A stretch of DNA of 64,000 nucleotides from Eukaryota sp. GEM-RC1 (taxonomy: Eukaryota): NCBI GenBank assembly GCA_040285855.1, contig JAUFOQ010000006.1, positions 930,001-994,000 of the forward strand, in the 5' to 3' direction. Below the pieces are notes generated by a model. That model was not told where the DNA came from. It did not search any database and was given only the letters and a program-made list of their open reading frames with translations. Made by a program: the position numbers and the translations under genes. Shown piece after piece: positions 21,804 to 60,054 of the stretch; position 1 is the first letter of the stretch, and the number at the start of each line of letters is the position of its first letter.

Positions 21804-21919
21804 CTGTGAATTTCATTCCAAATGCATAAGGGCATAACCCTTCACATTTTCATGAGATAAACCACAGTTGACAAAGTCCTCATTCGCAAAGTCTTTTAAG
21901 ACGAGCTAACTTCATAGAT
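21804..21919 (-). ncRNA. Candidate Fanzor omegaRNA scaffold (copy 1)
   Basis: 116 nt between the Fanzor stop and the element end, identical in copy 2. It folds into two stem-loops; the terminal one is a 64-nt CTGTG...CACAG hairpin (21804-21867). Confidence 0.75.
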
Positions 21920-24807
21920 TCAAGATTCCTGATCTTTCTGGTTTACGTTTACGTGTGAGTCCTTGGGTACATATTTCTTAGGCTTATTTGGACAAGTTGC
22001 TCTGTTATGCCCAGGTTGAAAACATATACCACACTTGTTAGGACCTCTGACTTTTGTTAGAGGACGCTTTGCCTTACCCTTACCCTTACTCACAGTCTTT
22101 TTCTTAGGAATCTGATCTGTATTCCCGCCATCCACGACAGGTGTTGTTTGAGATTTTGGTCTCTCGAGGATGGCAGGTCTACCTTGACCTTGAATTGTTC
22201 CATTTACAATATTGTAAATATTGATAGCAGAATTGAAATCTCTATTCCAGAGGACATGACATTTAGCACATTCAACTAAGCCCCATGGTGAGACTTTGTT
22301 GTTCTTCAATCTTTCTTTCGAAAATGTCAACTGGTCTGTCCATTCTTCATCAAAGTTACGCTCCACAATATTGTCTAATTGATTGTGTTCAATAATTTCC
22401 TTTTTAATTCTTTCTCTTCCTTCTGTAACTTCTTCTTCCAATTAGGATCAGTGACTTTGATCCTTTCAGGATTGGAACAGATACCTTCGTCATTTCTGGA
22501 AACACATGCAGAGCAACATTTGCTGGTCTTAAATTCATCAACTAGGAACACTTTAAATCCAAATTTTCTCAATAATTTCCGAATTGAAGCACCTTTTACA
22601 GTCGATGCTTTACCTCTTCTTCGACGAAAAGCAGTGTCGTTCCAGTCTCCATACCCAACAACGACTTCATCTGGGTTTCCAAACTGGAGAGTAAATCTGT
22701 GAAGCATGTTTTTCTCACTTCGTTCCTTTCTTGAATACTGTGTTAAGCGTCTACGTCTAAACCACTTTTCTTCGTAAATTCCTTCAGTATTTCTTTGATC
22801 AGTAGTGGGTGATCGTAATAAAGAACAGGTAATTTCTTTACCAAGAACAAAAGCAGAATACTGAGTCAATTCACAAGATTTACTACCTGGCGAGTTAGAG
22901 CCCCATTGATCTAAAATTTGTTGCCCATTTATGTCAATGCGTCTGCCATCTGGAATGTGAATAAATTGGGTAGAGTATTGTTGTAACCGTTCAGATTCAG
23001 ATAAACGGTGGAGATTATATCGTCTTATTTTCTTCTCCAGCTTCCTCTTCTTTCTCTTAGCTCTTTTTCTTTCCTTCCTTGTTTTTTTCTTTTCCATGGA
23101 GACTTGTTCATATCTGCCTTGCGCTCCCCAGCAGTGTATCTGAATACTTTCCAATCATCACGATTTTTCAACTTGACAGTTGATGGTTTGTCAATAGTGG
23201 GTGCGTCTTTCCAATCCTTCAATTGATTTTTTAATTTTTTCAAGCTTCCTTTTTTCTTTGATGATTTTGGAGAAATCTTTCTTCTTCTGAGTTTGGCTGA
23301 TGTATCGAAACCTTCGATTTCCTTTTCCTCCTTAGATTTTAAAGAAGCACAGTACATCAAATCATGCTGATTAGGATCAATAGCAACAATTCTTTTGGAT
23401 TTCAAATTTAAGTTTTGAATTTCTGTGGAACTCAAAGAATCAATGTACCTTTCAGTAGCTGTGTAGTCAACTGCTTTCACCTTCTTATGAGGATTTCCTC
23501 TCGCATCAAGCAGATCTTTCCGCATCATCATTAAATTACAGCTAACTCCATCTGTAGAAATAGAACTGTATTTGAAGTCATGAGACAATGACTTTGGAAG
23601 ACACTTTGGTTTCAAAACTGAGTGCCAAATATCTTTTCGAACGTCATCAAAGCTACCTTTAATTTCTGATGCATAAACTTCTTTAAACCATGTAGTATCC
23701 AATCTGATATGATTAGGAATCAGTGATTTTGTTAGAGGAAAAGGATTATTGGCAGTAACACCAGGACAAGAGTCCTCAACAAGACGTTTCAAATACACTG
23801 CATGACTTAAGAATTTCAAAGGATCTACTTTTTCAGCATAATAGATTGTTTTCTCCATTTTACCTTCAAAAAAAGTAAACAAATAGTTAAAAAATAGTAA
23901 ACTCAGTCTAGAATTGGGATCAGGAAACACTTCAACATCTTGAAAATTAATTTTTGAAATTTCCCCATTAATGATCAACTGTCTGACTTCATTAAGCTTT
24001 GTACACAACTCTTGTCGTAGATTCTTATCAGTAAGCTTGTTAAGTCTATCTTTTTCAGGGTAACCAAATTAAATACTTGAAAAACATATTCATGAAAGTG
24101 ATCACTCATGTTAGTCTTGTAATTCGTTATAATTTCAGTAGCCATGTAATGCAATATACGAGATAAACGATGACTACTGGGAAACACAATCCTATCAAGT
24201 CCAACAGATCGAGCAGCTATTTCTAAACGAGGAATATAATACATCAAGAAGTGTTGAGCAAACTGATTTTGAGTTGAGCCATCATTTGTGTTAGAAATTA
24301 TGTTTTCTAAAGATTCTTGCACAGTCTCAATATGATTCTGATTGTTTACAAGTTTGTTGTCCCTAATCGTCATCATAGACAACACTTGTTCCATTGATTT
24401 CAACGTAAAAAAATTCTTCCAGTCTGGCAATTCAATTTTGGCAGTTTGAATTTTAGTCCAAAGGTCAGGTTCAGGTTTAGGTTCATCACTCGCATCTTCA
24501 ATATTTTCTAATTTAATAGGAGGAGTAGCAGCATGGATAGACTCTGAATGTACATCTGTTTCTTCATCAGTTGACTCATCTGTATCAGAATTCATTTCTT
24601 CCTTAACAGTTACATTTGGAACAGTAGCAGGCAGTAACTTCTGAATGTAACCTATAATACCTGAATGGTGAAAATTATGAACAAAAAATGTTTCAAAAAG
24701 AGAGTACTACGGACTCTTACTTGGTGAGCTCTCTTAACACGAGATTCAATAAATTTAACCTTCGCTTTGGACACAACATTGTCTAGTCGTTTCTTAACCA
24801 CTTTCAT
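21920..24807 (-). CDS. Fanzor1 (TnpB-like RNA-guided RuvC nuclease) with C-terminal CCHC knuckle, frameshifted
   Basis: ISTDGVS; RuvC-I IVAIDPN; VGYGDW; RuvC-II VDEFKTSKCCSAC; ECAKC..WNRDFNSAINI (RuvC-III); GRP; CGICFQPGHNRATC. Spread over several ORFs joined by -1 shifts. Confidence 0.9.
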
Positions 24808-27800
24808 TGGTGACTTTGAACGTAATGTTTGTTTTTTGGGATCCAATAGGTCAGCCAACAAGTACTCAATCAGAGGTAATTGTTGAATTGAGTTCATCAA
24901 CAATAGCGGTCTTGTCGATTCCTTGGCCCAAAGTTCATTTACTTTCTCCAAATTTCTTACAAATTTCTTTTTAATCTTATCGACCTTCACTTTGGGATTG
25001 TCTGGAACTAAAACATTAATACTGTCAATTATGCCATGCAAGTTTTGGACATTATTGACCAATTGAACTTCATCAGGATCAGAGTCATGATTAAGTTCTT
25101 CCAAGCGTTTGACAGTTTCATTTTTAGAAAAATTATTCATTTCAAGAAAAATTTGAACAACATTTTCCAAAAAACGGCCACCAGTAAAGACATAAAAATT
25201 CTTCAGTACAGCATTCAAATCGAGACTAAAAAACGGACCAAAAGTTGTTTCCTTACACCATTTGTTGAACCAAAAGGGAATGTAGGGTTTAAATTCTGGA
25301 AAAGTAAACGTTGTATTGATTTTGAGGACTTGACAACGTGATACAAGAAAGGGAAATGTATCTAAGTGAAAGTCATAACTCACAAACAATCGTGGACAAT
25401 GTTGAGTAATGAAGGAAATGAAGTTTTTAAGCATACTGGATTCACTATCTGAAATATGTAAGGTACACAAATCCAAGTTTGTAGTATCAAAGTTGCCATG
25501 AGAAAATAAATGTTTTTCATTAAACTCATTGTGATCAATGATCTCGATGGAAATTGATACAATAGGATCAACAGAAGAATCACGTTTAACTTCTAATTGA
25601 TCTTCAGCTTCACCTTCAACAGTTTCAATGTCATCATCATCTTCTTGAACAAGTTGAACATTTCTGCCATTAATTCTTTCTTTTTTGGCAAAATCACTTT
25701 GAACATGAATTAAACAAAAGTTGGTAGATTGTTCCAAAGTAGAGGGGATTTAAGAAAGTCTTGAATTTGTATTTCTTCTTCTATAGGCTCAGTGTGTAGA
25801 TTTACTTCCATTTTTGGATTTCTTCTTGAATTGGCGATGGATACGACATAATGGAGGCCTTAATTTTGGGTGGTAGTTCAGATGGTGGTACTTCAGATGA
25901 TTCCAATGTGGACATACGGCGGTGAGTCTTTCGTATTGGAGTGTCACCAGTTGAAACAAGGGAGCTGGTAGTTCTAAATTTATTTCGTTGAATTAAAGGT
26001 GAACCTCGTGGTGATGGAATATCAGAAATTTTGGCCTTTCTTTTTTTAGTGCTTAAACCAGTAGATGCTTTAGTGCTAGCAAGACGCTTACCTGAGATTG
26101 GTGACGCAGAAACACGCGACAACTCAACAGGACTAAAAGTTTCAAAATGTTCCAAAATTTTACTTCGAGACTCGTGAACAGCAATAGTGGTATTACCCAG
26201 CAGTTCTTTAACATCAGTCCACCTTATGACCACAGATTGATCTAAATTCATTAAAAGATCAATGTATTCGAGAACACAAAAACCAGAGTCAGTTAGAGTA
26301 TGTTTGATATTTGATGGAATAAATTCTATATTTCTGGTTTCACACATTGACAACACTGAATAAATTTTTGACACAATTGTAAATAAATTGGAGGAAGATG
26401 GTGCAACTGGCATTTGGTTAGCAGGAAATTCTCTGGCATAATCATCCTCAACGTAGGTCGGATCAATGAATAAAATATGACTTGTAGGAGATGAAATGAT
26501 CAGAATAATTAAACCCCAATGACGACCATCAGCAGTAAGATCACACATTGCACTATTGACAGGAACAAGTAGCATTTGTTGGTTGTTTTGACCACATTGG
26601 AAGAATTTCTGCGTCAAAAAATCTGAAAATGGATATTTATTATAGGGTTGGTCACCATATAATAACGGATATAAATCAGTTGGCCCAATTACATAGTCAT
26701 AAAAGATTAAACCTGTTGATTCCACAAGTATTTTGGAATATTTGATGAACAATTGATCGTCAACATAAGTAAACAATTTTTGAATCTGTTTACGGAGATC
26801 TGCAGCATTAAGTTCAATGTTAACTTGGATTAAAGCACGTTCAATAGAGATCAAAGATAGATTGATGCCATCCCTTGAAATGAGTTCAACAAATTTTTGA
26901 ATATAACCAATAACATAAATACCACAGTCATTAGGAGTCTGTGTCTTGGTGATGTTGACCCTCTGTACGTTCAATGTTACTTTCCTACATAATTCATCTA
27001 CAACAGAACTTAGATAAGAAGAACCAACAATTGGATCCACAAATATCGCGTTGTTTTCCGCACAGTCTATTACCATTAGACCCCAATGAACTCCTCCAGA
27101 TCCACCTGTTGTATTCATAGCATCGTTGAGAGGAACAGCGAAGTATCTGGTGCTTCTCTCCCGGGCGTCATCAATCTTATTTTGGCAGTATCCATCAGTT
27201 AAAAAATCTGACCACATCTCATCTGGAGCAATGAAATAGCATTCCCAATCAAGGTTTGCTTCTTTGAATTGGTGTTTTGAGTATTCAGAAAGGGCGTAAT
27301 CATCTATCCATTGGCCAGGATTCAGATACTCTAGGGAGTCTTTGGACAACGGTCCGGGATTGGATTCCACGTCACCATCCATGGTGAGATCTTCTTTGAA
27401 TGGGGGACGGGAGGAGAAAACTGTACAAGAGAGGTCTAAAACACTTCGCGAGGAAGAACCACACACGGCATAGCTCTTGTTTTTAAGTATGTGTGTGTAG
27501 TTCATTGGAGGGGAATTGACACGGAGGGGAGAAACTGTACCATCAGCGAGAGAAGAACCACACACGGCATAGCTCTTGTTTTTAAGTATGTGTGTGTAGT
27601 TCATTGGAGGGGAATTGACACGGAGGGGAGAAACTGTACCATCAGCGAGAGAAGAACCACACACGGCATAGCTCTTGTTTTTAAGTATGTGTGTGTAGTT
27701 CATTGGAGGGGAATTGACACGGAGGTGAGAAACTGTACCATCAGCGAGAGAAGAACCACACACGGCATAGCTCTTGTTTTTAAGTATGTGTGTGTAGTTC

Positions 27801-28000
27801 ATTGGAGGGGAATTGACACGGAGGGGAGAAACTGTACCATCAGCGAGAGAAGAACCACACACGGCATAGCTCTTGTTTTTAAGTATGTGTGTGTAGTTCA
27901 TTGGAGGGGAATTGACACGGAGGTGAGAAACTGTACCATCAGCGAGAGAAGAACCACACACGGCATAGCTCTTGTTTTTAAGTATGTGTGTGTAGTTCAT
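24808..28000 (-). CDS. Repeat leader + 2A + two Ulp1/C48 (SENP8-like) protease domains, N-terminal to Fanzor
   Basis: WIDD..., VPLND...GGVHWGLMVID, FVDP, QTPNDCGIYV. Second domain VPVN...HWGL...FIDP...DSG. In copy 2 this region is one ORF running into the Fanzor N-terminus. Confidence 0.85.
27350..27391 (-). other. 2A (StopGo) ribosomal skipping motif
   Basis: DLTMDGDVESNPGP matches the D(V/I)ExNPGP consensus. Confidence 0.9.
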
Positions 28001-28026
28001 TGGAGGGGAATTGACACGGAGGGGGA
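27453..28026. repeat. 99-bp tandem repeat (~5.8 units) encoding the 33-aa leader repeat
   Basis: Near-identical units differing at one G/T position. Each encodes MNYTHILKNKSYAVCGSSLADGTVS(H/P)LRVNSPP. Confidence 0.95.
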
Positions 28027-28445
28027 GAGCGAGAGGACCTCATCCCGCTAAACATGTATGCGAGAGAAATGATGAAGAGTATCTGTAAACTGATCTGGAC
28101 TACAGTTGACTTTTTGCGACATCTTCAATTTGACAATACACCTGACATACATTCAATTTATTTTAACGACATGTGATGAACGAATAATTCTAATGACATC
28201 ATGTATACACAAACATAGTACTGTACTGTATGGATTGAAACAAACCAACATTGATGTCAATTTACTAACCTACAGTATGTTAAAAGTTATAAAGACTGCA
28301 TGTAAGATTTATCTAAGTACTGTGAGTAGTGATAACAATAGATGTACATATAAATAAGATCAAGTAAGTCACTGTCTGAGGTGTAGAATTAACCATAAAA
28401 ACTAAGAACGAAAAAATTTATAAAGAACGAAAAAATGAATAAAGA

Positions 28446-31400
28446 CTATTCCCTCATTTTGTATTCCACATCTGTAAGATTTTGCCTCAAAAACGCGTGG
28501 AAAGTATTCCACTTTTTGCTTCGGGGTTGGTCGTTATCCATGATAACAAACAGTGCGTTTTCAGTTCTTTGTTGAATAAAAGGAAATGTTGATGGCGTAT
28601 CTGGAAGATCAATAATAATTGATATCTGACACCTAAATTCGGAAAATTTTTCCAAAATTCCCCAATTAGCAAACAATACCGAGTTTGGTTTCGTGTTGAA
28701 CTGGTTCATTGTGAAATTATAAGCACTTTGAGTGACAGGTTTGGTTTTGCTACTGGCAAATTGGAGGGCATTAATGGTACCGTTCTTGGTTTCTTCACTA
28801 AACAAACTGCGATACGTCAGTACATCTTGTCTAGATTTAAACAATACAGCAATTTTTTCATGGGGTAACTTCCTTGTTTGGAGGATACCATGTAATAACC
28901 TTTTCAAAATTGAACTGATATCCGCAAATTTGCAATGAACAAGGTTGAACTTTTTTCCTTTCAGTCGAATAGGAGGTCCTTCAGCTGGTGATAGTTTGTT
29001 TGGGTGGGATGATTTATCCAAACTTCTACAATATGATTGGAAATCAATTTGTTCCAAAGTTGTATCACCACCTGAACGACACAAAGTCATCACTTCTCCT
29101 GACACATCAACAATTCCAATTGTCATTGAAGTATGAGAAAAAATAGTTGACATGGCTCTTGTATGCCCGTAGATATACAAAATGAGATTTCTTTTTGTTT
29201 TGCACTTATACCTATACACGTTCCATCATTAGTGATACACAAAAATAATTCAAATGCTTCAATGAAAATACAGTCTACCAGACTAATTTTCTCACTTGTA
29301 GGGTAAAAATCATAGACAGATTCAAGACAGTGTATGACATTGCTTTCCCCATCAGTTCTTATGAGATCTACGGATGACTCGCTTAAAACCAAAACAAAAC
29401 CTTCTTTGTAAGCATGAAGTTTGGTGAAGAGCTTTCTTGGTCTATCTTTTGGTTCACGTTGCAAGTCAGCATGAAATTGAATATCTGTCACACTGACGGT
29501 GTAATCAGTAATGTAAATGAAACTGTCACATAAGGTTACAATATCCTTTAATCCTGTTGTTTGACTAGTTAAAGTCCGCCTGACTCCAGACATTTCAAGT
29601 TCGTATATAAACTTTTCCGTCATTACCAAGCATCCCCTAAAATAGTGACCAGGCAAAAATATTGCAACAATTCTTTCATCAAGTTGGTGTTGCGTATATT
29701 TTCCATTTTCGGTACCATTTTCTACGCTGTCTTCATAAGATGACTCATTGTATAAAGGTAGATTAAGGAGTTTAATCATTGACTCTTTAACATAAATAAC
29801 AAATAATCCATCAGACGAAACGTCAAATGGACTATCACTATTGATTTTGTCCAAAATTGAACTGGATTTGTGATCTGTAAGATCAAGAATCATAAGATAG
29901 TATGAGCCATTGAGAAGACAACGAGCAACAATTTGAGTTGTCGCCGGTATAATTACACACTGTTGAACGACAAGTTGTACAAAGGTAAATTTACCAGCTA
30001 TGTTAGGTACAGGTCTTTGAAAACAAATTTTTTGAGCCTTCCATGACGCAATAGGTTCTGTACTATACAAAGCAGTAGAAGAAGTAGTAAAAGCAGTAGT
30101 AGAAGTAGTAGTAGGAGCAAGAGTAGTAGAAGCAGTAGGAGCAAGAGTAGTAGAAGCAGTAGAAATAGTAGAAGCAGTAGAAATAGTAGGAGGAACTGTA
30201 TCTTGCCAATACAATGTAATAATAGATCCTTTTCCAGTAACAAAATAAATTTCTGGCTTTTTGAGAGAAGGAAAAATTTTGATAATACCTGCATCCCAGT
30301 TTCGTTTAAAACGATCATTAAAAAAGACAGGAGCGGCTCGATTATCAGTATTAAAGAAACCAATACGATTCTTTCTAGTCACAAAAATGATGACTTTGGG
30401 ATGACCATATATTCCACATGCATCAACAATACAATCATATGGCTTAGGTCCTTCCAACCACCCCTGTGGTCTTAACAGAAAATCTACTTTGATTTGAGAT
30501 TTTGAAACCGTCACAATATGTAACGAAGTCTTTGCAACCACGAGTCGTGAATGAATATCATTTGGAATTACACCAAATTTGAATCCACCCGTAGCATAAC
30601 TGTGCATTTCAGCATCTGAGAAGCTGACGGCATCTTTATTTGCCCAGAAAACCGAACTACTTGTTAATAACAAATGTGTATCAAAGGAATCTTCCAGTTT
30701 TACAAATGTGGAATCAAGGGCTACTTCGTTTCTTGGAAGTAAGGTAAACGCATCGTTACCAGTCCTATCGGGAAGTTGTACAGATTTCAAATAACCACCA
30801 ATGGTACCGACAAACAAACGGTCATTATCTGTACTTACTAAAGATGTTGACTTGATTTGATTTTTAAATTCACGGTACATTTGATTCTTATACGAAGCAT
30901 TATGTGCTTGCATGTATGTGATCATAACTTGATCAGCGGTGGGTGTGAATACATAAAAAAAAGTAGGCCTGGGTTGGTGAACTGCTAGTGACAGTAAATC
31001 ATACTTTGGCAAATGTAAACGATTTTGTAAAGTATCCTCTCCCACTGTCCAAAGAACTAAATCATTTCCAGTTGTCAATAATATAATGAAACTACCAGTT
31101 TCAGTTATTACGGCATTTTTAATGTCAGATGTAGATGACCAAGTGGTTTTGGATTTGACAGATGTCGCAAGTTGAGCGAGAATGTCAATTGTCTTTGTCT
31201 TTACAGGTTGACGTTCTGAAGAAGGAGGGTGAGAATGAGCTGAAACACTGACTTGATGCCCTAATAAAAGTTCATCTTCTTTTGAAATTGTTTCTAAATC
31301 AGATTCTTCCATATACTCCTCTACATCACTGGTTCCAAATGTTTCAGACTCCGAGTCCGATACAATTTTTTGTTTTTCAACATTACTATACAGTCTTTTC

Positions 31401-34400
31401 CAGTTGAATCAAACCTTGCTTCATACTTACGAATTGCTTCCTCAATATCAAAATTTCCGCAAACGTTACACGGCCCAGTGCATAATTTAGTTTTAACGGT
31501 TTCATCTAACCGAAATGGTACACTACCAGCAGCATCATAGTCGGATGCGTCCACATCAATAATTGTTCCAGTAGGTTTCATGGGGGACGATTTAATGGCC
31601 TGAATCTGATAGAACAAACGAGTAGGATCCATTTGTAATCTTTCACACAAATAAACACCTAATCTACATCGATTCAGGCAACCAATCATTGATACTAAAG
31701 GTTTCAGAACAGAATCATCGTATTCATAGCATATTTCCGAATTATGCGCAATATCAAATGATACCATTTGTGTGGTAATACATCCGTAGCTGAACACACG
31801 AACATACATCAATTGTAAAAATAAGTTGGACAAAGTACGTTCAAAATAACAGCACAAAGTTGGAAGTGCCTGTTGCGGAGTCACATATACACCTGACCAT
31901 TGATCACATTTATCGACAGGTAATCGAGTGAAAAGAGAGTTGTAGAATTTGAGATCAATACGACCACTATGACCGTTCAGAGTACTGTACTTAATAGGAC
32001 TTTGATAGTAGTAATTTGAGGCTCTTAAACGCACATTAACGGAGAATGTTTTTTCTTTACATAGTAGACCAAAATTTAACAAATCTGCAACATTTACACC
32101 GGCACTGTTACTGGAGTACCATTGATTAGTTTTGAAGAATACTGAGGGATAGGGGTGTATATTCAATTTGGGGAAAAACGGATGGGGTAATTTAGATGAT
32201 GAAGAATTTTCAATCATTTTGGCCAAAATAAGTGAAATAACTCTGTTATTTTTACAATTACTCGCTGTAAGTTCGATTTCCTTGTCGGATTCAACAGAAA
32301 GTTCTAATTTAACAGCATTTGTGTCCCGCTGTCGCTGTTTTGAAGACTCCAATAAACTATTCAATTTTGTTATCTTTGCGTTTAATTCATCAACAGAAAC
32401 ACTTTCAAATAACGTCTTTTCAAATGGTTCAACAGGCAGCTGAGTTGAAGATCCTTGTAATGCCATGTCTTGTTGCATACTTCGAAACATTATTGAATTT
32501 TTCGGGTAAGACGACGCAAACAACAAAGTCAATTGTGAAAAATCGAAATTAGATGGAACAAGTGTTTGATAAAAAGATTGATCCTTAAAATCACTCCATT
32601 CTTTTGATTTAGATCCTGTTTCCTCTCTTTTTCATGTTTATGTCCTGTATGGGCCATTTTGTACCCTTGTAATAAAGATTGGACCTGTTTGGCTTTAGCT
32701 TCTAACGAATCAAAGGTTTTGGACAATCGATTCAATTTGGATTGGAAGGTTTCACCCATACTTGATACACTACGCTTAATAACACTCAATTTGGACAGCA
32801 ATCTATCGCACCAAAACTTCAACTTCCTAAGGTCAAAATATTGTAAAATCTTCCAATTGATTGTACCGGATAACAAGGCACATAAAAATTTGAACATCAT
32901 ATTCAGGTCTGAAAATCCGTGATCCGTTCCATCATCATACAAATTTAGAAAATTTCCTAGTTTTTCAACTTGGTTGATGTATTCTGTGTTGAACTTGAAG
33001 TTAAACAAATTGAAATTGAATGAACATAAAAGAATTAATCCGGCAACAACTTGATCTTGAACAAAACAATTGAATACAAAATGAAAATGTTCATGAGAAT
33101 CAGCAAGAAGTGATCCCAAAAGTCCCATAGACGTCAGTTTGTCATTGATAAAACGACTCTCAAGGATATTATTCAGGTAGAGGGAGTAAACTGTTTCGTT
33201 TACTGAAAAATCAGAAACGATAGTAGGCATGGCATTCAGAAAATCATTTGGATGAGATGAAATTTGTTTAACTTTCAAAATACAATCTTCCAATGGTGAA
33301 TCTAGAATTTGTGGATCTTTTGTCGGAGACCTTGAGTACTGACCAATAAAATTAAAGTCAAATAATCTAATACAGATCCCAGGTCTTGTCCGTCCGACTC
33401 TTCCAGCACGTTGAGTAGCAGAGCATTGTGAAATGTTTGCCATAACCAATTCTTTTCTGAAATTTGGAACTCTTTCTAACCCAGTATCCAAAACAATTAC
33501 TGCCGAGTCGATCGTGATTGATGACTCTGCGATGTTAGTTGCAGCAACAATCTTGAATTCATTGTTTTTACACTTGCTTGCTGCCTTGAGTTGATCCTCT
33601 CTGCTGATCTCAGAATACAAAGGATAACAACAGTTCATAGGCAAATCATTATTGTGATAACATGCTTTAACCAGACTTTCTACTTCAAAAGAACCAGGTA
33701 AAAAAACAATTAATGTTATACCTGGAACATCTGACTGTCTTGTATGAAGTTTTGTTAGTACAAAGTATTTGACAACAATTTTGTAAATAACAATTATCAA
33801 TTGCAGGAGTGCGTCTGAGTTAATAATCGACGGGTGAAGTCTCTGATCTACTTTAGATTCAAAGTGTTTTTTATAATTTACCACTTCTGCACGAAAATCA
33901 TGTTGATGATCACAGACAGCTTCTCGAAATCGAGGGGGAAATCCTTCAGTAAGTTTTGAATACCAGTCATTAGTTTCGAAATTCTTAAAGTCGAAAACGT
34001 TCAGGACTCTTGAGAATTGACCAGTGTCAAACATAAGGTTTTGTTGTTCTTTAAGTAAATCAGTCTCTGTCCATTGATTATCAGGGAGCAAAGTGTTTAA
34101 AAACTGGGTTAAGTTCAGCAGTTGTTGATCCAATAGTTGCGGATGACAAACCACGTATAATGCCCGAGTTTTTTAAATTAATTTTCATTACTGTGAGTAA
34201 CAGATCGACATCTATAGTTCTGTCATGAACTTCATCCACAATGACGACTTTGTAAGTAGAAACAAATGAATGCTGATTCATCAACAACATGAGAGTTAAA
34301 CCAGTTGTTTGATAATGAACCAAAGTATTGTCTGAAAAATTGTATACCCCACCACCACAGTGATATCCAGCAATGGGGTAATCGTAAATAAATTTACTAC

Positions 34401-36542
34401 CCAGTCGAGGTCTAGTTAAGGAGTTAAGAAATTCAGACAAAAGATTGCCGAAGGTACCGTTGGTTGGGAAACAATGACTTTGCTAAAAAAAGTAAGCGCA
34501 AAAATAACAGGTGACAGTGTAGATTTTCCTGATCCAGTTGAACCAGTGATCATATAGGGTAAATCATAACTCCGATCAGAATTACAATAACACTTGATTA
34601 AATGCTTTAATAGTTCAGTAAAACTATTCTTTCCAGTAGAAGTCGAGACAAAGGACAATTTATGATCTCGTTGAGCATGAAATAGAACATTCATCAAACT
34701 AGACAATGCGAAATGGTCTACATTGTGTCTACTAGCATATTGTTTCCAGTGAGTGATGATAATTGGAGTAATTTGAGTAATAAGGTCGCATTTTAAATCC
34801 ATCAGCTCAGTCATAAGATCATCGAAATTAGTATCATGACGGTTTACCTCAATTGGTTCAATAGCATCAACAGCATTAACATCAAGGAGAATTTCGGTAA
34901 GATCTTCGGGTGTTTCTTCAACATCTTGTAATAAATCAATAACTTTGGCTTTCTCTGTCTTATATTTCAAAGCATCTTTAATTGCTTGTTCAACAACTTC
35001 TTCATGTGTTGTTCCATTGAATATATAGCTAATGAAAACAAATGGGAAGTTCATTAGATTTACAAAGGGTTCAAAACAATTTTCAAATTCTGAAGTGGAA
35101 ATAATGTAACTTTGATAACCTAGCATAAATACCAACAAATAAATTGAAGAAATTTGTTGATTTCGGTAATTCTCTTGATCAGTTTCATTTGAAAATAAAT
35201 ATGTCTTGGCAAAGACATAAAAGCGATAGAGTGATCGAAAAATCCAGGTATCTTGTAACTTTGCATCAACATTGAGTAATCGGGAAGCATAGTTTTCAAT
35301 TCTTACAGACATATCAATAGATGTATTATTAAAATCCTGTACTTGTTCATATTCATCAGCTTCGTCAGTTGTTTGTTCTGAAAGAACAGCTTGGCCATCG
35401 GCAGCTTCAGCATATTCTACAATTTCATTGAGTAGTTTTTCCAAGTAATTTTTGTTAAAATGTTTTGGTGGGGTCAGATCTCGCAGCCAAGTTTTTACTT
35501 CTCTTGCTGAATCAACTGTGAATGGGGAAAGAGAATCTGGCGTTGGAAAGGTATCTTTAAAAAATTTAGATCTTTGCAAATACTGATGACACAGTGTTAG
35601 TGCTATCGTCAACATTGTTGTTAACGAAAGACAACAGGCAGGATTTACAACGCGAATGAATTTCGAGAAATCAAGAGTATGAGCGGTTAAACAGCATTGG
35701 ACGGGCCTGGTCGAATCATGCTGTTGTGGAAGTATACCAGGCTGTCGGGGGAGCATACATTGATTACAAATGGCGTAACTTGAACATTGTTTATCAATTG
35801 TCAAACGTTTTTGTGCAGAAAATTGTAGAAGTTGTTGCGATGGTAAAACTTTCAGGGACGGCAAGTCAATGGAGGTGAAAACTTCATTATGATATTCTAG
35901 AAACTCAACAAAAACATGATCGACTTCTGGGGCAATCAGAGATTCAAAGAAGGATGTAATGTAATCATAAATATTTTTAACAGAAAGTCTTTTCATTGGT
36001 AGATCAAAATGAGCAAGAGCATTGTCTAGTTGAGACTTACATTCAGTAAAAGAAATGGGATCACGATCAGTCATTGCTTCTGGAACAGACTGTGAAGCAT
36101 TCAGGTGATAGTGTTCCAAGCAAGTACATATACGATGTCCTGTAATGTTCTTCACAGGATGGATTACAGACTCATGTGAAATAAATGCACAGCCTGAGTG
36201 AGCGGAGGGTGGAAATGGACCGGGATTTGACTCTACATCACCGTCCATTGTGAGATTTCTTAACCAACTATGGGATGGAGAGGCATTAGATTCAGTAACA
36301 CGTACAAAACAACAATAGTTCAAGGCATGACTCTTCTTTACGAGCATGTTATCCCTATATGTTGTATTGGGGGAAGGGGGCGTAGAAAGAGAGGACTTCG
36401 CTTCAACAACGGGAGGAGAACAACAACAACAATAGTTCAAGGCATGACTCTTCTTTACGAGCATGTTATCCCTATATGTTGTATTGGGGGAAGAGAATGG
36501 CATTTTGAAACGATGGGGAAGATATATCCGGAGCAATTTCAT
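28446..36542 (-). CDS. Repeat leader + 2A + DEAH/RHA-family helicase polyprotein (six ORFs joined by frameshifts)
   Basis: GSTGSGKST, SQPT, IVDEVHDR, SAT, VFLPG, ATNIAESSITI, DTG and QRAGRVGR motifs. Downstream ORFs overlap in shifted frames and include a beta-rich (propeller-like) region and a degenerate helicase-C-like domain. Confidence 0.8.
36216..36266 (-). other. 2A (StopGo) ribosomal skipping motif
   Basis: WLRNLTMDGDVESNPGP. Confidence 0.9.
36309..36493. repeat. Two ~68-bp direct repeats, 117 bp apart, in the helicase leader
   Basis: PNTTYRDNMLVKKSHALNYCC is encoded twice. Confidence 0.9.
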
Positions 36543-37229
36543 TTGATGTTGATCTTGATGCTTCTGACTTCACTTCACCACCTTGGATTTTACATCACCT
36601 TAAAAACACTTCTTTAACACGTTATCCCCATGGATGTTTACGTCTGTCTAACGTAATTCATGCTTACTTGGAGTTCATCATGTGTTGTTCTGGATGAGAT
36701 CCATGACTTTTTTTTGAGTTTCCACCTTCATTTACTGTACTCTTGGTCAAAATCGAATCGTATTTGCGGTTTTTAATGATGAGATATTTATGTAATGTTG
36801 GCTTCACAATAAAATATGAAATAGATAGTTACAGTTGAAAACATCCTATACATTTATAAAAATAGAATATAATTCACCATATGGCTTATGAGTCGTTATG
36901 ATGCCGTTGCCGTGACGGATATGCACCTAAACCCACCACGATCTGATGATGTTGTAGTAGATCAAATGCGCAAATCAACTTTCTCCAATTACACACGAAT
37001 CCAGGAATTTCAACAGGTTGTCAACAACCACCAGACATCTCTTCTCACTTTTTTTCACTATATGGTCAAAAAATCTTTATTGTATATGATGGTTTCTTTC
37101 ATGTACATAATGAAGGGAAGATATATCTAAAGTTCAAAAGGATTCTTCGTAAAATTGGATTTTTGACAAGAGACTTAAGAGGAGGGAGTGGAGTCGAAGT
37201 AATCTCAGTTGTTCCAGTTGATTCTGATT

Positions 37230-37799
37230 CTAAGTCATTGCTTGAGTTACTTGATTCTTCTTTTCATTCAATAAGTTTTCTTCTCTAACTGCCTTTGGAG
37301 ATTTAGACTTTTTCATCTTAGAAAGTCTTGCAGAACATGAAACTTTTTGATGTTGTTCATGTTCTGCAAGATCAGACAAGTCTATTGCTGAGTCACTTTG
37401 ATCTTGAATCAAAATATTATATAAATTTTGAGAGGACAAGGAAGTAGTGGTACCATTCTTTTCTTCAAGAATATGAGTTTCTTTGTTAATAAAGAATTCA
37501 ATGTTTTCCTTAAGATTATCACCAACAACATTTTTAAACCATGTTGTATTGTTGGTGGACACTGCGATATGAGAAGTACTATCAGCAGCTCGGGTGATTA
37601 AGATATAATCTCCATTAATTCCGAGATTGCAAGGTGAAGTTGAAGGAGTTGATTTTGTCTCAGTAAAAGAAAAGACATTGTATACATCTTGGTGTTTAGA
37701 TGCATACTTCCTCTGATAAGCAGAAAGACGACGTTTCCGAGACAGAACGTTTGTTGATGAGTTCATGCAAATTTTGCCGGGAAACAAATTCTCCTTCAT
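37230..37799 (-). CDS. Hypothetical element protein
   Basis: 189-aa ORF with an NLS-like RKRR. It probably continues through a -1 shift. No family recognised. Confidence 0.4.
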   Translation of the reverse strand: MKENLFPGKICMNSSTNVLSRKRRLSAYQRKYASKHQDVYNVFSFTETKSTPSTSPCNLGINGDYILITRAADSTSHIAVSTNNTTWFKNVVGDNLKENIEFFINKETHILEEKNGTTTSLSSQNLYNILIQDQSDSAIDLSDLAEHEQHQKVSCSARLSKMKKSKSPKAVREENLLNEKKNQVTQAMT

Positions 37800-38590
37800 C
37801 GGAATCTCAATGTCTTTGAACGAATCTTCTCTTGAAGTGATGTCAAGTCTGTTAGTACAATATCACGAACACTGCAACAGAAGTTTGATAACCTTATGCA
37901 ATTGTTGTCATTGTACTTCGTTAGGAGATGATTCTGTGACCACATCTATATCAACTTCCTTAAAAGATCTTGTGTCAACTCTGTTCTACCCTTCATCAGA
38001 AACTTCTAATGTTGAGGAAGTCTTAATCAGAGTATCTCATCTTTGGCAGTTCACGCCTCTACTCAACAGTTTTCTCAACTGGACAGGTTTAATTGATATT
38101 CTTCTTCATTGTTGTCTCAATGATGATACTTGTTTATTTTTGAAACATTTACATTTGCTGATCAATAGTTTTGCTTGTTTAGTTGGTATATTATTTTGTC
38201 ACAGTTCTCGATCTTCTACAACTTTATTAATTCCTGTACTCCTCCAAAGTTCACTTCATGATGATGGTCATTTAAGATTTGATTATTTTAAAAAGATTGA
38301 GGATAAATTGTTGCTATTACTTGAGGACAATGATTATTATCTATCTGTTTCAAAGTTTGTTTTGATTTTTGTTAACATTGTTTTAGCAAAAGGTAATTGT
38401 AATGATTATACTGAAGTTGTCAATTTGTTTAGTTTTATTTTTAGAACGAAGTGATTTTGTTGACTTGAAACATGTTTTGACTTGGAAAATGTCAGGAAAT
38501 GATGAGATTGATGTGGAGAATTTATGTGATGAGTTGTTGCAGTTTAATGATAGTGTAGTGAAGTATGTTTGTAAGTATTTGTGTAAGTAG
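37765..38590 (+). CDS. Hypothetical element protein (frameshift at ~38440 in copy 1 only)
   Basis: ORFs 37765-38454 and 38402-38590. The 3' part is continuous in copy 2 (59321-59797). Confidence 0.45.
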
Positions 38591-38596
38591 ATACAT

Positions 38597-38846
38597 ATTG
38601 TTACACATCTTGTATTACACATCTTGTATTACACATCTTGTATTACACATCTTGTATTACACATCTTGTATTACACATCTTGTAAAACACATCTTGTAAA
38701 ACACATCTTGTGTTACAAATGTTGTATTACAGATCTTGTGAAACACATCTTGTAAAACACATCTTGTAAAACACATCTTGTGTTACAAATGTTGTATTAC
38801 AGATCTTGTGAAACACATCTTGTATTACAGATCTTGTGAAACACAT
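38597..38846. repeat. 14-bp minisatellite (TTACACATCTTGTA and variants)
   Basis: Tandem 14-mers starting just after the stop codon at 38590. Confidence 0.95.
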
Positions 38847-39647
38847 CCAGTCTTGTATCTACATCCACATTTTCTTCATCCAAACTCATATCCACAACGA
38901 AGCCACACTCTGTTACTTCTCGTTCTTTAAGAGTTATGTGACTCCCCAAACTGAAGGCTAGTGACATTTGCTGAAGACATACACCCGATACACATGTTAA
39001 ATGCCATATTGTTACCCCTTGGTCTTTGATTCTCCTTCTTGTATAATAAACAGCTAGTGTCTCGTTTGCGTATCGTCGTTGCATATCTTTTATATGACAA
39101 CATCAAGACATGACAATTCTAATCCCAGTCAAACAGACTTACGCGTACTCTTTATTGTTTGGTCAATCCACTGCTTTACACTTCTCGCCAAACTTATCGG
39201 AAACACATTCACTCTTTTCCTCTTTTAACATTTTGTGTTGATTCTATTGGAAGACGGTGCTAGATGTATTAGTTAGTCGCTGAGTAATGTCGCTGAGTAA
39301 TATCATAATAGTTGGAAAGTAAGATTTGATCTATAAACAAGAAGACATAGATGTTAAAACGAAGTTTACTATTACAAAAAGAAGTCAGAGATGATACATA
39401 TAAACATACAAACACACATCCTCCATCACTACTACTGGTGTGATATAGAAAATTCTTGCATATGAATCGTATGGAAGGACAAATGTTCACAGAATCAATA
39501 TAAAAGGACTTGAAGTCGTGAACTGCGGAAATGTGAGATTGTAATACCCCGACTGAAATACAGTCCCTGGATAAAGTCATAGTTTGAAGTGAAAGAGAAA
39601 TTTGATGAAGACCAAGTTTCCCTGCGCTCAAACAATCCATCAACTCA

Positions 39648-42144
39648 ATGGCACCAACCTCTTTACACAACATCAATCTCACAGATGACCAACGTGAGAT
39701 CTTTAACGCAATCACTACCAGCAGACACAACTTCTTTGTCACTGGTGGTGCAGGATCAGGAAAATCTTATCTTTTACATGCTCTCAAATACTGGTGGAAT
39801 AACGCAGGATCTCGTCTCATGCGTGCTAATGGTGAAATCTTCTTCACTGCAACAACTGGGGTTGCCTCAACTGTTTTTGGTGGACAGACCATACACTCAC
39901 TGTTTGGTTATAAGTTTATGAAAGAAGAAGAATCCATACATGATGTTATCAAATGTATGCCATCAAATGTCAAAATTTTGTTAAAAAATATTACTCCAAA
40001 AAATACAATGTTAATCATTGATGAAATTTCAATGTTATCCTCCAATTTGTTTCAACGGGCGAGTGACATTTTGGGCGAACTTATGCACACGCAAAAATGT
40101 CACTCTCCGAAGAAACCATTTGGAGGAATTCAGATAATTTGTTTTGGGGACTTTCTTCAATTAGCCCCTGTTGTGAAAAGTCTTGATGGAAAAGGAAATC
40201 GAAAAGTGGTAATTTCTGATTTCGCTTTTTCATCAAGAGCTTGGAACAATTTAAATTTTAAATATTGTGAACTGGCTGGAAGTATTCGTCAGCAATCAGA
40301 CTCAAAATTTTTTAATTTTCTAAATCAATTGAGATTGGGTCTGTTAGATAATTTTATGAAATCAATTCTGCGTACTCATTTCGAAACAGCAGAATCTGTT
40401 GAAAACCCAACAATTTTATACGGAAAGAATACTGATGTTGCTAGAGAAAATTTTAAACAATTCAAACTTCTGGCCAAAATTCAGATTCAATTGAATTTGT
40501 AGCTGTTGACAAATTCAATGAATCTGAATTAAAATCTCAAATCAGAAAAAGAAGTTCTAGATTTCCAGTCAATGAATCTAATTTGGAAAAATATTATGAC
40601 ATTGAAACTTCTGTGCTGACAAGTCGCTTGGATGACTTTGCTGAAAAAAAACTAGAATGCGTTGTGGGTGGACAAGTGATGTACACTCAAAATAAGCCTG
40701 AACTTGGACTAGTTAATGGTTCAAAAGGAGTTATTGTTAATTTTTCAGATTCATATATTGATGTTCGGTTCAACGCTGAAGCAGAACCGAAAAGAATCAG
40801 TCAGTCAAGGTTTGCTATCGAACACTTGAACGAAATCGGAAGACCTGTTCAAGTGGCGAAAAGAATTCAGTTTCCGCTAAGACCTTGCTGGGCGATAACA
40901 GTGCATCGATCCCAAGGTTTAACAATTGACGGGATTGAAGTTGCTATCCAGTTTTGGGAATATGCCCAACTTTATGTGACCTTAAGTAGGGTTAGGTCTT
41001 GGAGGAGTTTAAAGATTTTAAGTATTGGAAGAAGTTATCCGGTACCAAATTTGGAATTGTACCAATGGTATTATTCAACTTTTCATCCTGTTAAACCATC
41101 CACTATTGATTTGTATGTTTTGGGAAATCAACATTGTCTTCAACGAGATTTCAATCATTTTAATTCATTGTTTGCAAACTTTTGTGCAGAATCGAGTGAA
41201 CCAATTATGGATGATGTTGTTGTTCCTGAAATTGTTCATGGTGTTGATGAAATTGTTGATGAAGTTGTTGTTGATAATGTTGATGAACAAATTATTGAAA
41301 ATAATGATAATCAAATTATTGACTTTGAAAAAATCGTTTAAATCATTTAGACAAATCAAATTTATTTGAAACAGAAGCTGTACTATCAGGATCCGATTCT
41401 GGTGATGAATCTGATAGTGATACAATTTCAACAAGTTTAGATGATTTTGTTGTAAATGATGAACTTGAAGAAGATGAAACTAATATTCCTCCCAAATTTA
41501 TTAATTGTGACTCAATTTTTAACAAAAATTCCCCAGAGATTGGTGTCAATAAGTCTAAACTTCCTCAGTTACCACGAGGCAACATTACTCTACCATCGCT
41601 TCCCCGTTTGAAGAAAACCCCTTTACCAACGAAGAATTTATTATTAAAAAAGAATGTCAGTGCTGGTATAGAAAGAAAAAGTTCCCAAGTATTTCCTCTT
41701 ATTGATGATGAAAAGCGATTTTGTCTCAAGGAAGTTCAAACTGAAAGCTTTGAAAATGAAAAATGTGATTCCATATGTGAATATCAACAAACTGACAATA
41801 TGACTTATGAAACAATATCATTGTCTCCTATTTTGGAGTATAATCGTGTTGCTACTTCAAAACAATTGAGAGTGGACTTAACTATTGGAATTCAGTCAAT
41901 TGTCGATAATGTACTAGATTGTATTGGATCTGAATATGCATCAAGTATGGAAGTGAAAACAATAAGAAACTGTTACATTACCGATGTGATTAATAGGGAT
42001 AATGTTGATGAACGTTATTGTAGTGATGTGCTTGTGGAATTGTTTCATGTTTTGAAAGAGTATTTGAAAAATGATGAAAAGACTGGTATGTGTGTTTTAT
42101 TTGAATTATATTTAATTTTGAAAAAGATTGGAAAATATAGGTAA
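39648..42144 (+). CDS. PIF1-family (SF1B) DNA helicase with acidic C-terminal extension, two -1 frameshifts
   Basis: TGGAGSGKS, TATTGVAS, GQTIHS, IIDEISM, PFGGIQIICFGDFLQLAPV, RQ, LVNGSKG, RIQFPLRPCWAITVHRSQGLT and QLYVTLSRV motifs. Confidence 0.92.
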
Positions 42145-42160
42145 TTTTGATAGTTTCATT

Positions 42161-42520
42161 TTGTGTTACACATCTTGTAAAACACATCTTGTAAAACACA
42201 TCTTGTATTACAAATCTTGTATTACACATCTTGTGTTACACATCTTGTAAAACACATCTTGTATTACAAATCTTGTATTACAGATCTTGTGTTACACATC
42301 TTGTAAAACACATCTTGTATTACACATCTTGTGTTACAGATCTTGTGTTACAAATGTTGTATTACAGATCTTGTGTTACAGATCTTGTGTTACAAATGTT
42401 GTATTACAGATCTTGTGTTACACATCTTGTGTTACACATCTTGTAAAACACATCTTGTGTTACAGATCTTGTGTTTCAAATGTTGTATTACAGATCTTGT
42501 AAAACACATTTTGTGTTACA
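42161..42520. repeat. 14-bp minisatellite, same family
   Basis: Tandem TTACACATCTTGTA / TTACAGATCTTGTG / TTACAAATGTTGTA after the PIF1 stop. A related array lies at 42709-42798. Confidence 0.95.
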
Positions 42521-53951: not shown

Positions 53952-54067
53952 CTGTGAATTTCATTCCAAATGCATAAGGGCATAACCCTTCACATTTTCA
54001 TGAGATAAACCACAGTTGACAAAGTCCTCATTCGCAAAGTCTTTTAAGACGAGCTAACTTCATAGAT
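53952..54067 (-). ncRNA. Candidate Fanzor omegaRNA scaffold (copy 2)
   Basis: Identical to 21804-21919. Terminal hairpin at 53952-54015. Confidence 0.75.
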
Positions 54068-56950
54068 TCAAGATTCCTGATCTTTCTGGTTTACGTGTGA
54101 GTCCTTGGGTACATATTTCTTAGGCTTATTTGGACAAGTTGCTCTGTTATGCCCAGGTTGAAAACATATACCACACTTGTTAGGACCTCTGACTTTTGTT
54201 AGAGGACGCTTTGCCTTACCCTTACCCTTACTCACAGTCTTTTTCTTAGGAATCTGATCTGTATTCCCGCCATCCACGACAGGTGTTGTTTGAGATTTTG
54301 GTCTCTCGAGGATGGCAGGTCTACCTTGACCTTGAATTGTTCCATTTACAATATTGTAAATATTGATAGCAGAATTGAAATCTCTATTCCAGAGGACATG
54401 ACATTTAGCACATTCAACTAAGCCCCATGGTGAGACTTTGTTGTTCTTCAATCTTTCTTTCGAAAATGTCAACTGGTCTGTCCATTCTTCATCAAAGTTA
54501 CGCTCCACAATATTGTCTAATTGATTGTGTTCAATAATTTCCTTTTTTAATTCTTTCTCTTCCTTCTGTAACTTCTTCTTCCAATTAGGATCAGTGACTT
54601 TGATCCTTTCAGGATTGGAACAGATACCTTCGTCATTTCTGGAAACACATGCAGAGCAACATTTGCTGGTCTTAAATTCATCAACTAGGAACACTTTAAA
54701 TCCAAATTTTCTCAATAATTTCCGAATTGAAGCACCTTTTACAGTCGATGCTTTACCTCTTCTTCGACGAAAAGCAGTGTCGTTCCAGTCTCCATACCCA
54801 ACAACGACTTCATCTGGGTTTCCAAACTGGAGAGTAAATCTGTGAAGCATGTTTTTCTCACTTCGTTCCTTTCTTGAATACTGTGTTAAGCGTCTACGTC
54901 TAAACCACTTTTCTTCGTAAATTCCTTCAGTATTTCTTTGATCAGTAGTGGGTGATCGTAATAAAGAACAGGTAATTTCTTTACCAAGAACAAAAGCAGA
55001 ATACTGAGTCAATTCACAAGATTTACTACCTGGCGAGTTAGAGCCCCATTGATCTAAAATTTGTTGCCCATTTATGTCAATGCGTCTGCCATCTGGAATG
55101 TGAATAAATTGGGTAGAGTATTGTTGTAACCGTTCAGATTCAGATAAACGGTGGAGATTATATCGTCTTATTTTCTTCTCCAGCTTCCTCTTCTTTCTCT
55201 TAGCTCTTTTTCTTTCCTTCCTTGTTTTTTTCTTTTCCATGGAGACTTTTTAATATCGGCATTGCGCTCCCCAGCAGTGTATCTGAATACTTTCCAATCA
55301 TCACGATTTTTCAACTTGACAGTTGATGGTTTGTCAATAGTAGGTGCGTCTTTCCAATCCTTCAATTCCTTTTTTAATTTTTTCAAGCTTCCTTTTTTCT
55401 TTGATGATTTTGGAGAAATCTTTCTTCTTCTGATTTTGGCTGATGTATCGAAACCTTCGATTTCCTTTTCCTCCTTAGATTTTAAAGAAGCACAATACAT
55501 CAAATCATGCTGATTAGGATCAATAGCAACAATTCTTTTGGATTTCAAATTTAAGTTTTGAATTTCTGTGGAACTCAAAGAATCAATGTACCTTTCAGTA
55601 GCTGTGTAGTCAACTGCTTTCACCTTCTTATGAGGATTTCCTCTCACATCAAGCAGATCTTTCCGCATCATCATTAAATTACAGCTAACTCCATCTGTAG
55701 AAATAGAACTGTATTTGAAGTCATGAGACAATGACTTTGGAAGACACTTTGGTTTCAAAACTGAGTGCCAAATATCTTTTCGAACGTCATCAAAGCTACC
55801 TTTAATTTCTGATGCATAAACTTCTTTAAACCATGTAGTATCCAACCTAATATGATTAGGAATCAATGATTTTGTCAGAGGAAAAGGATTATTGGCAGTA
55901 ACACCAGTACAAGAGTCTTCAACAAGACGTTTCAAATACACTGCATGACTTAAGAATTTCAAAGGATCTACTTTTTCAGCATAATAGATTGTTTTTTCCA
56001 TTTTACCTTCAAAAAAAGTAAACAAATAGTTAAAAAATAGTAAACTCAGTCTAGAATTGGGATCAGGAAACACTTCAACATCTTGAAAATTAATTTTTGA
56101 AATTTCCCCATTAATGATCAACTGTCTGACTTCATTAAGCTTTGTACACAACTCTTGTCGTTGATTCTTATCAGTAAGCTTGTTAAGTCTATCTTTTTCA
56201 GGGTAACCAAATTAAATACCTGAAAAACATATTCGTGAAAGTGTTCACTCATGTTAGTCTTGTAATTCGTTATAATTTCAGTAGCCATGTAATGCAATAT
56301 ACGAGATAAACGATGACTACTGGGAAACACAATCCTATCAAGTCCAACAGATCGAGCAGCTAGTTCTAAACGAGGAATGTAATGCATCAAGAAGTGTTGA
56401 GCAAACTGATTTTGAGTTGAGGCCTCATTTGGTTTAGAAGTTATGTTTGTTAACGATTCTTGTACAGTCCTAATATGATTCTGATTGTTTACAAGTTTGT
56501 GGTCCCTAATCGTCATCATAGACAACACTTGTTCCATTGATTTCAACGTAAAAAAATTCTTCCAGTATGGCAATTCAATTTTGGCAGTTTGAATTTTAGT
56601 CCAAAGGTCAGGTTCAGGTTTAGGTTCATCACTCGCATCTTCAATATTTTCTAATTTAACAGGAGGAGTAGCAGCATGGATAGACTCTGAAGGTACATCT
56701 GTTTCTTCTTCAGTTGACTCATCTGTATCAGAATTCATTTCTTCCTTAACAGTTACATTTGGAACAGTAGCAGGCAGTAACTTCTGAATGTAACCTAAAA
56801 TACCTGAATGGTGAAAATTATGAACAAAAAATGTTTCAAAAAGAGAGTACTACGGACTCTTACTTGATGAGCTCTCTTAACACGAGATTCAATAAATTTA
56901 ACCTTCGCTTTGGATACAACATTGTCCAGTCGTTTCTTAACCACTTTCAT
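54068..56950 (-). CDS. Fanzor1, copy 2 (three -1 frameshifts)
   Basis: Same motifs as copy 1. RuvC-II, zinc finger, RuvC-III and knuckle lie in one 390-aa ORF. Confidence 0.9.
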
Positions 56951-59311: not shown

Positions 59312-59804
59312 TCTCCCGGGTGTCTCAATGATGATACTTGTTTATTTTTGAAACATTTACATTTGCTGATCAATAGTTTTGCTTGTTTAGTTGGTATATT
59401 ATTTTGTCACAGTTCTCGATCTTCTACAACTTTATTAATTCCTGTACTCCTCCAAAGTTCACTTTATGATGATGGTCATTTAAGATTTGTTTATTTTAAA
59501 AAGATTGAGGATAAATTGTTGCTATTACTTGAGGACAATGATTATTATCTATCTGTTTCAAAGTTTGTTTTGATTTTTGTTAACATTGTTTTAGCAAAAG
59601 GTAATTGTAATGATTATACTGAAGTTGTCAATTTGTTTAGTTTTATTTTAGAACGAAGTGATTTTGTTGACTTGAAACATGTTTTGACTTGGAAAATGTC
59701 AGGAAATGATGAGATTGATGTGGAGAATTTATGTGATGAGTTGTTGCAGTTTAATGATAGTGTAGTGAAGTATGTTTGTAAGTATTTGTGTAAGTAGATA
59801 CATA

Positions 59805-60040: not shown

Positions 60041-60054
60041 CAGTCTTGTATCTA

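Follow-up and report, generated by a model that had tools for sequence, protein, structure and literature searches.

The subject of this analysis is a 64,000-nucleotide (nt) stretch of DNA (the window) from Eukaryota sp. GEM-RC1, covering positions 930,001 to 994,000 of contig JAUFOQ010000006.1 (assembly GCA_040285855.1), and in particular a mobile element within it that carries two long genes on the minus strand, here called gene 1 and gene 2. As originally predicted from the window alone, both genes open with an in-frame tandem array (the leader) followed by LTMDGDVESNPGP, a 2A or StopGo motif, written in different codons. In other copies of the element the leader is replaced by unrelated repeats whilst the 2A and the protein body are kept, and a role for the leader as nucleic acid is therefore favoured. 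Our preferred explanation, which we hold with middling confidence on the strength of sequence comparison, is that the arrays would be a swappable control region of promoter type, the peptide they encode being discarded by the 2A.

The two 2As lie at 36216-36254 (gene 1) and 27350-27388 (gene 2) on the minus strand, and the window's six frames contain no other NPGP motif. Their 13 residues are identical despite eight synonymous codon differences (there are no non-synonymous ones), whilst all 14 flanking codons compared, eight before and six after, differ in residue; judged by these codons, the 2A is under selection as a peptide and its flanks are not. Skipping is predicted immediately before the proline codons at 36216-36218 and 27350-27352. 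The published StopGo core is (D/G/C/N)(V/I)ExNPGP, and an upstream hexapeptide, DLTxDG (motif 4), goes together with a D at p12 and an S at p15 (PMC12846837; here and below, what we attribute to a cited source comes from part of it). Both genes have DVESNPGP as the core, preceded in gene 2 by an exact motif 4 and in gene 1 by NLTMDG, a single departure. In reticulocyte lysate, StopGo was almost 100% for the motif 4 example tested (PMC12846837). In P0021, a divergent gene-1 relative, 12 of the 17 2A residues are kept, though the body is only 29% identical over the next 150 residues.

The leaders of the window are designated A (gene 2) and E (gene 1). Their periods, 99 and 117 nt, were noted at the outset to be multiples of three, and each array is free of stops in just one of three sense frames, that of its own 2A and gene. 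GC content is 0.46 in array A and 0.43 in array E, against 0.30 and 0.35 in the neighbouring non-coding stretches, where no long-period array is listed; array E itself was missed by Tandem Repeats Finder. Aligned as DNA, the A and E units match roughly end to end with a score reached by 17 of 5000 dinucleotide shuffles, whereas as peptides their similarity is not significant (163 of 1000 shuffles). The resemblance between leaders that had been pointed out is thus real in the peptide and DNA stretches quoted for it, with the DNA likeness significant and the peptide likeness not. Array A has one in-frame ATG per unit, the first at 28000; array E also has one per unit, together with two in-frame ATGs upstream, at 36542 and 36503, so that an in-unit start is not needed in gene 1. 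One ATG per unit was accordingly rejected as a rule, and with it the proposal that the leader is in general an initiation array, since gene 1 can start upstream of its array and the unit of a further leader, F, has no methionine. Sigma-70-like sites in array A were disregarded as irrelevant, the scan being for bacterial promoters only and the host a eukaryote.

The evidence for leader turnover comes from 27 proteins, 15 of which begin downstream of the 2A position and are uninformative on leaders. An intact 2A is present in 12 of the 27, and ten of these 12 (eight of ten without the window's own two) have an array upstream of it. Leader length had been proposed to vary, and it does: unit E occurs 1.6 times in the window, and 2.6 and 3.6 times in P0020 and P0037. 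Comparison of repeat number across copies, put forward as a check in the original prediction, went further than was foreseen, with unrelated repeats standing in for the leader. The gene-2 body is 94-99% identical over the 150 residues after the 2A, yet it is preceded by four unit types, of 33, 38, 76 and 27 residues, whose peptides are not significantly similar to one another. P0021, 36% identical to gene 1 overall, has a sixth unit type, of 26 residues repeated three times. Among the 15 possible pairs of unit types only D and F are similar as peptides (0 of 1000 shuffles). The pair A-E (as DNA) and the pair D-F (as peptide) each unite a gene-2 leader with a gene-1 leader, and it appears, from these comparisons, that one leader family has twice come to serve both types of gene.

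The mechanism that we propose takes the in-frame arrays at the head of the two long genes, which differ in their number of units and are exchanged from one copy to another, to be probable nucleic-acid control regions, most likely internal promoter arrays. Translation would begin at an ATG in the array or ahead of it, and the ribosome would skip at the G/P junction of the 2A, releasing the array peptide—presumably waste—so that the enzyme polyprotein always begins at the same proline. Because the 2A would shield the protein in this way, recombination close upstream of it would be free to expand, contract or replace the array, and matched leader families would put both genes under one control. 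The choice of a promoter array leans on the parallel with the promoter monomers of mouse LINE-1 (L1), discussed below, and on the higher GC content of the arrays, with an RNA hairpin array ranked second.

A further step may be taken tentatively, and on balance we think it doubtful: the leader may amount to a translated 5' untranslated region (5'UTR), that is, a set of exchangeable control arrays inside the reading frame, cut off by a viral 2A and co-regulating both polyproteins. We read the host as a metamonad because its name matches that of Skoliomonas sp. GEM-RC, which is placed among the metamonads in a clade sister to Fornicata (PMC11316075). In Giardia, most of the highly expressed 5'UTRs fall below 10 nt in length, and scanning by ribosomes seems not to occur (bioRxiv 10.1101/2020.09.30.321331). 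Were the host Giardia-like, with near-leaderless mRNA and no scanning, any long 5' control region would have to lie in the reading frame, and this would explain the periods divisible by three, the open frames and the presence of the 2A.

These findings bear on the purpose of the peptide that precedes the N-terminal 2A of mobile elements. Complete turnover of the leader over a fixed 2A and body amounts to a natural experiment, one suggesting that the leader matters as nucleic acid and that the 2A decouples regulatory evolution from protein evolution. The GEM-RC1 element also extends 2A use to an element without detectable reverse transcriptase, and it supplies several natural leader/2A pairs.

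A number of observations weigh against the promoter-array explanation. A second copy of the element in the window has lost both leaders and both 2As to an internal deletion, no upstream repeat was detected in P0015 and P0025 (two of the 12 proteins with a 2A), and the 2A of the gene-1 relative P0040 has decayed. The upstream Trp of the WV(R/K)DLT signature is present in all four gene-1-type 2As and in none of the eight gene-2-type 2As (Phe in seven, Ser in one); this Trp is critical in class B 2A peptides (PMC12338488). The eukaryotic 2A-like peptides of retrotransposons often cut yield instead of skipping cleanly, and 59-70% of those tested lowered protein abundance (bioRxiv 10.64898/2026.06.17.732966). 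The leaders of other copies come from automatic gene models, their DNA lying out of view, and for leaders B, C, D and F divisibility by three is biased evidence, since an array that is out of frame would not be visible as a protein repeat. Lastly, a hairpin common to A and E points partly to RNA, and the data do not separate a DNA promoter from an RNA structure.

That hairpin is the basis of the strongest rival, in which the arrays would work at the level of RNA. Hairpins repeated through the codons translated first would steer initiation or be bound by a protein (the DEAH helicase polyprotein of the element itself, perhaps), the peptide being removed by the 2A. The discarding of the leader by the 2A is thus common to this explanation and to ours; what differs is how the array is read out. 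The shared 25-nt motif is predicted to form 7 bp with an 8-nt A-rich loop and a 1-nt bulge, and all eight A and E units fold into this one hairpin, a count that is circular in that the pattern was built from those same units. Between A and E all three stem differences keep pairing (they include one compensatory A-U/G-C pair and one U-G/C-G pair) and four further differences fall in the loop and bulge. The changed residues of P0040 likewise map, by eye, to the loop. Folding of unit A is confined to the sense strand (z -2.78 vs 0.04), but for unit E it is no better than in shuffles (z -1.0 and -0.4), the covariation is not significant (79 of 500), three random stem changes would keep pairing with a chance of 2-6%, and Rfam gave no matches at E values up to 1. 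There is a precedent of sorts in the Giardiavirus internal ribosome entry site, reported to need 264 nt of coding sequence (PMC2757703), the start site having later been revised (PMC8230311). A hairpin universal to the leader types is not supported, however: no sense frame of B, C or F could code for it, and D fits it solely with a pattern so loose that 25 of 300 shuffled peptides fit as well. All told, we regard the RNA explanation as unlikely.

The arrays might instead be neutral, the 2A making the upstream peptide irrelevant so that slippage duplications and captured sequence pile up before it. High turnover and variable unit number are what this predicts, and the two 2A proteins with no repeat and the survival of a copy without the leader/2A modules agree with it. 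It sits badly with the finding that all six leader types are arrays when the neighbouring non-coding DNA has no such array, and with the two occasions on which a leader family is common to both gene types; it also leaves the retention of a 2A at the start of the gene unexplained. We think neutrality improbable.

Less probable again is that the released leader peptide, or a hydrophobic tether before the 2A, is itself the functional product, for example as a signal for docking at the membrane or the signal recognition particle. Sea-urchin 2A leaders have reportedly been proposed to act as docking signals of this kind, and in leaders B, C, D and F a stretch of 11 residues that is hydrophobic (mean hydropathy 1.9-2.6) does precede the skip site, at a distance of 33-45 residues. 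The leaders of the window have no such tether, however (1.34 and 1.15), and none of the 11 leaders has an N-terminal hydrophobic signal, the highest 11-residue hydropathy near the N-terminus being 1.42. Leader peptides carried by the same or near-identical bodies are unrelated, and the A-E likeness, as we have seen, reaches significance in DNA and not in peptide. The released-peptide option of the original prediction is therefore disfavoured. The least probable alternative, that in this host the 2As skip poorly or not at all and mainly throttle a risky nuclease/protease polyprotein, or are relics, could call on the abundance-lowering retrotransposon peptides, the gene-2 2As without Trp and the decayed 2A of P0040, but it is at odds with the strict conservation of the whole core and motif 4 hexapeptide at saturated synonymous sites and with a toti-like viral contig that matches the gene-2 2A exactly over 16 residues.

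The features of the element are collected in Table 1. Gene 1 runs on the minus strand from the ATG at 36542 or 36503 to 28446 and comprises, in order, leader E, the 2A, a Cys/His-rich and helical domain, a DEAH-box helicase and unassigned sequence. The helicase has DHX8/Prp-type matches (E about 1e-17), with its motifs at 33390-34544, and is followed by some 1,400 codons without a match. No family was found for the Cys/His-rich and helical domain, and about 1,900 codons of gene 1 in all are unassigned in Pfam, PHROGs, PDB and Foldseek searches. A search of 1.84 billion representatives with the N-terminal domain returned six matches: the decayed relative P0040, four confined to the surroundings of the 2A and one repeat protein. 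The model of P0021 ends in a histidine-phosphatase domain (PF00300) and not in the helicase, this being either a captured gene or a modelling artefact.

Table 1. Coordinates and supporting evidence for features of the GEM-RC1 mobile element
Feature	Coordinates	Strand	Evidence or description
Mobile element copy 1	21804..42520	.	second copy opens at the same base amid other flanking DNA, 98.5% identity
Mobile element copy 2	53952..64000	.	internal deletion of the equivalent of 27170-38112 (self-comparison)
Leader array E, gene 1	36304..36493	-	117-nt (39-aa) period, ~1.6 units, 74 nt duplicated
2A/StopGo of gene 1, WLRNLTMDGDVESNPG/P	36216..36266	-	core octapeptide and W-x-R upstream signature, N replaces D
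Gene 1 body	28446..36215	-	~2,600 codons, six frame pieces
Leader array A, gene 2	27448..28024	-	99-nt (33-aa) unit x5.8, 98% matches
Shared 25-nt motif, one copy	27467..27491	-	8 copies in all, 6 of them in A and 2 in E
2A/StopGo of gene 2, FKEDLTMDGDVESNPG/P	27350..27400	-	exact DLTxDG and DVESNPGP (motif 4); F where W is preferred
Two Ulp1-like (C48) protease domains, gene 2	26282..27349	-	Pfam PF02902, E 7e-6
Family-B DNA polymerase exonuclease-like domain, gene 2	24652..25749	-	Pfam PF03104, E 1e-7
Fanzor1 RNA-guided nuclease region, C-terminal part of gene 2	21920..24706	-	RuvC-type residues, relatives
Structured 3' end after Fanzor, ends CACAG	21804..21919	-	fold z -1.97
Stand-alone PIF1 helicase gene	39648..42144	+	Pfam PF05970, E 6e-33

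Gene 2 runs on the minus strand from the ATG at 28000 to 21920 and encodes leader A, the 2A, two Ulp1-like domains, a PolB-exonuclease-like domain and Fanzor1. Read from the sequence, the first Ulp1-like domain shows His, Asp and Gln-Cys, and the second has Ser at the Cys position. The exonuclease-like domain is continuous with Ulp1 both in copy 2 and in P0022, and P0080, another relative, has the exonuclease and Fanzor in one protein (all three PDB matches to P0080 are Fanzor1). The RuvC-type residues D (IDPN), E (VDEFKTS) and D (NRD) are all present. The Fanzor1 motif, D ... [TS][TS]xx-C4 zinc finger ... RD (PMC3627910), is represented by IDPN, KTSKCC and NRD in both copies. The structured sequence that follows Fanzor has no match in Rfam; it lies at what we take to be the position expected for an omega-RNA scaffold.

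Frame breaks of 1 nt split both genes, which are hence much longer than their stop-to-stop frames suggest. Several breaks are read through in the models of other copies (P0020, P0022, P0048 and P0080; that of P0020 reads through the first break of gene 1) and copy 2 lacks some of them, so we take each gene to be a single polyprotein. For the same reasons programmed frameshifting was rejected as the principal explanation; the breaks are read as decay or assembly error, which are indistinguishable here, and the models could hide introns. The PIF1 gene, on the opposite strand, has neither a repeat leader nor a 2A. It is flanked by 14-nt repeat arrays in direct orientation, at 38601-38847 and 42157-42520, which begin immediately past the stop codons of two plus-strand frames. 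Weak peptide similarity (E 0.006), possibly due to chance, was seen between two short frames, one to each side of the gene and in opposite orientation (42907-42996, plus; 38992-39084, minus).

The element in copy 1 is at least 20.7 kb long, with a sharp end at 21804 and the other end at or past 42520; no inverted copy of the 21804 end was found in the window. Fanzor1, Ulp1-like, DEAH and PIF1 domains are all carried by it, but Pfam, PHROGs, PDB sequence, Atlas and Foldseek searches found no transposase, Rep or reverse transcriptase (the Atlas search for a transposase gave no usable match, two predicted folds had low confidence scores, pLDDT 34 and 45, and Foldseek gave no match at E 0.001). 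The class of the element is therefore left open, and a large unclassified Fanzor1 element is indicated. Named relatives, up to 97-99% identical, are labelled Eukaryota sp. GEM-RC1. The element is multi-copy: protein records number 26, 14 and 13 in three Fanzor clusters, counts that overstate copy number because the records are often fragments, and coverage by records is higher for the 3' part than for gene 1, the searches behind the two not being equivalent.

Other features of the window may be noted briefly. In copy 2 a segment that precedes PIF1 and extends into it is tandemly duplicated (1167 nt, 60055-62388), and there is a short duplication where the deletion joins, near 59311. Directly past the Fanzor end of copy 1 is a two-domain hemerythrin gene (20699-21841, minus strand). 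A broken fragment at 53000-53695 (plus strand), without a match in Pfam, has frames like the zinc-knuckle and restriction-like endonuclease (RLE) end of RLE-type non-long-terminal-repeat (non-LTR) retrotransposons, going by what we presume to be the motifs of that group. A 640-bp element at 43261-43900 resembles a miniature inverted-repeat transposable element: its terminal inverted repeats are 26 nt long and perfect, and it also has subterminal repeats of 17 nt (43274-43820). A hammerhead interpretation of the latter was dropped, as they sit within this element. SWEET-type sugar transporter genes are duplicated (46823-47675 and 50129-50982, 88% identical), and dispersed repeats of 190-300 nt, direct and inverted, occur at 511-1088 and 3468-4021 and at 11138-11330 and 52362-52554.

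Beyond GEM-RC1, a degenerate DNA pattern for this class of 2A fetched 22 metagenomic and 39 viral stretches. No upstream peptide repeat was seen in any of 39 distinct viral or metagenomic contexts (62 loci) within at most 300 residues upstream, several of these contexts having short or cut upstream frames. For 28 of the 62 loci, Pfam searches of a frame or two identified 16 as RNA viruses and gave no match for 12. The toti-like viral contig mentioned above (L002) has its 16-residue identity to the gene-2 2A at 151-192, by shared origin or convergence. We found no account in the literature, most subscription journals being outside the search, of tandem-repeat leaders before a 2A or of a 2A in a Fanzor element, and both the GEM-RC1 2A peptides and the organism tag are absent from four supplements of PMC13405545.

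How, then, does the GEM-RC1 element compare with known systems? Its 2As resemble motif 4 of RNA-virus StopGo peptides (PMC12846837) in the core octapeptide, the upstream hexapeptide and the D/S preference at p12 and p15, but they follow a tandem array where the genes of a chromosomal element begin. In contrast to the sea-urchin leaders of NLR-type signal-sequence 2As, all 11 leaders lack an N-terminal hydrophobic signal. As in the Helitron2-associated Fanzor1 elements CRe-1/2/3 (PMC3627910), Fanzor1 is found at a sharp, conserved 3' end; here, however, it is the C-terminal part of a 2A-led Ulp1-exonuclease polyprotein, and no transposase was found. Both copies end in CACAG, unlike the CTRR 3' end of Helitron1, and, unlike in Helitrons and Helentrons, PIF1 stands alone on the opposite strand and none of the 34 frames scanned matches Rep (HUH).

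N-terminal 2As are known from non-LTR retrotransposons (bioRxiv 10.64898/2026.06.17.732966; bioRxiv 10.64898/2026.09.24.754024), including the APE-type elements L1Tc, Ingi, CR1, L2 and Crack (PMC3708506). There, as predicted here, the 2A lies near the N-terminus of a mobile-element polyprotein and separates a leader from the enzymes. The GEM-RC1 element differs in having no reverse transcriptase or APE match in Pfam, in bearing the module on two genes and, by comparison with the elements of PMC3708506, in having for its leader a tandem array that is exchanged between copies. In mouse L1, non-homologous promoters have been swapped and monomer number varies (PMC3600994), and the GEM-RC1 arrays are like L1 monomers in being tandem units at the start of a gene, variable in number and subject to non-homologous replacement, with a tether before the protein. 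L1 monomers are promoters, whilst the arrays described here are known as sequence and, in other copies, as gene models. L1 monomers are also untranslated, whereas the GEM-RC1 arrays are in frame, lie behind or contain ATGs, and lead into a 2A.

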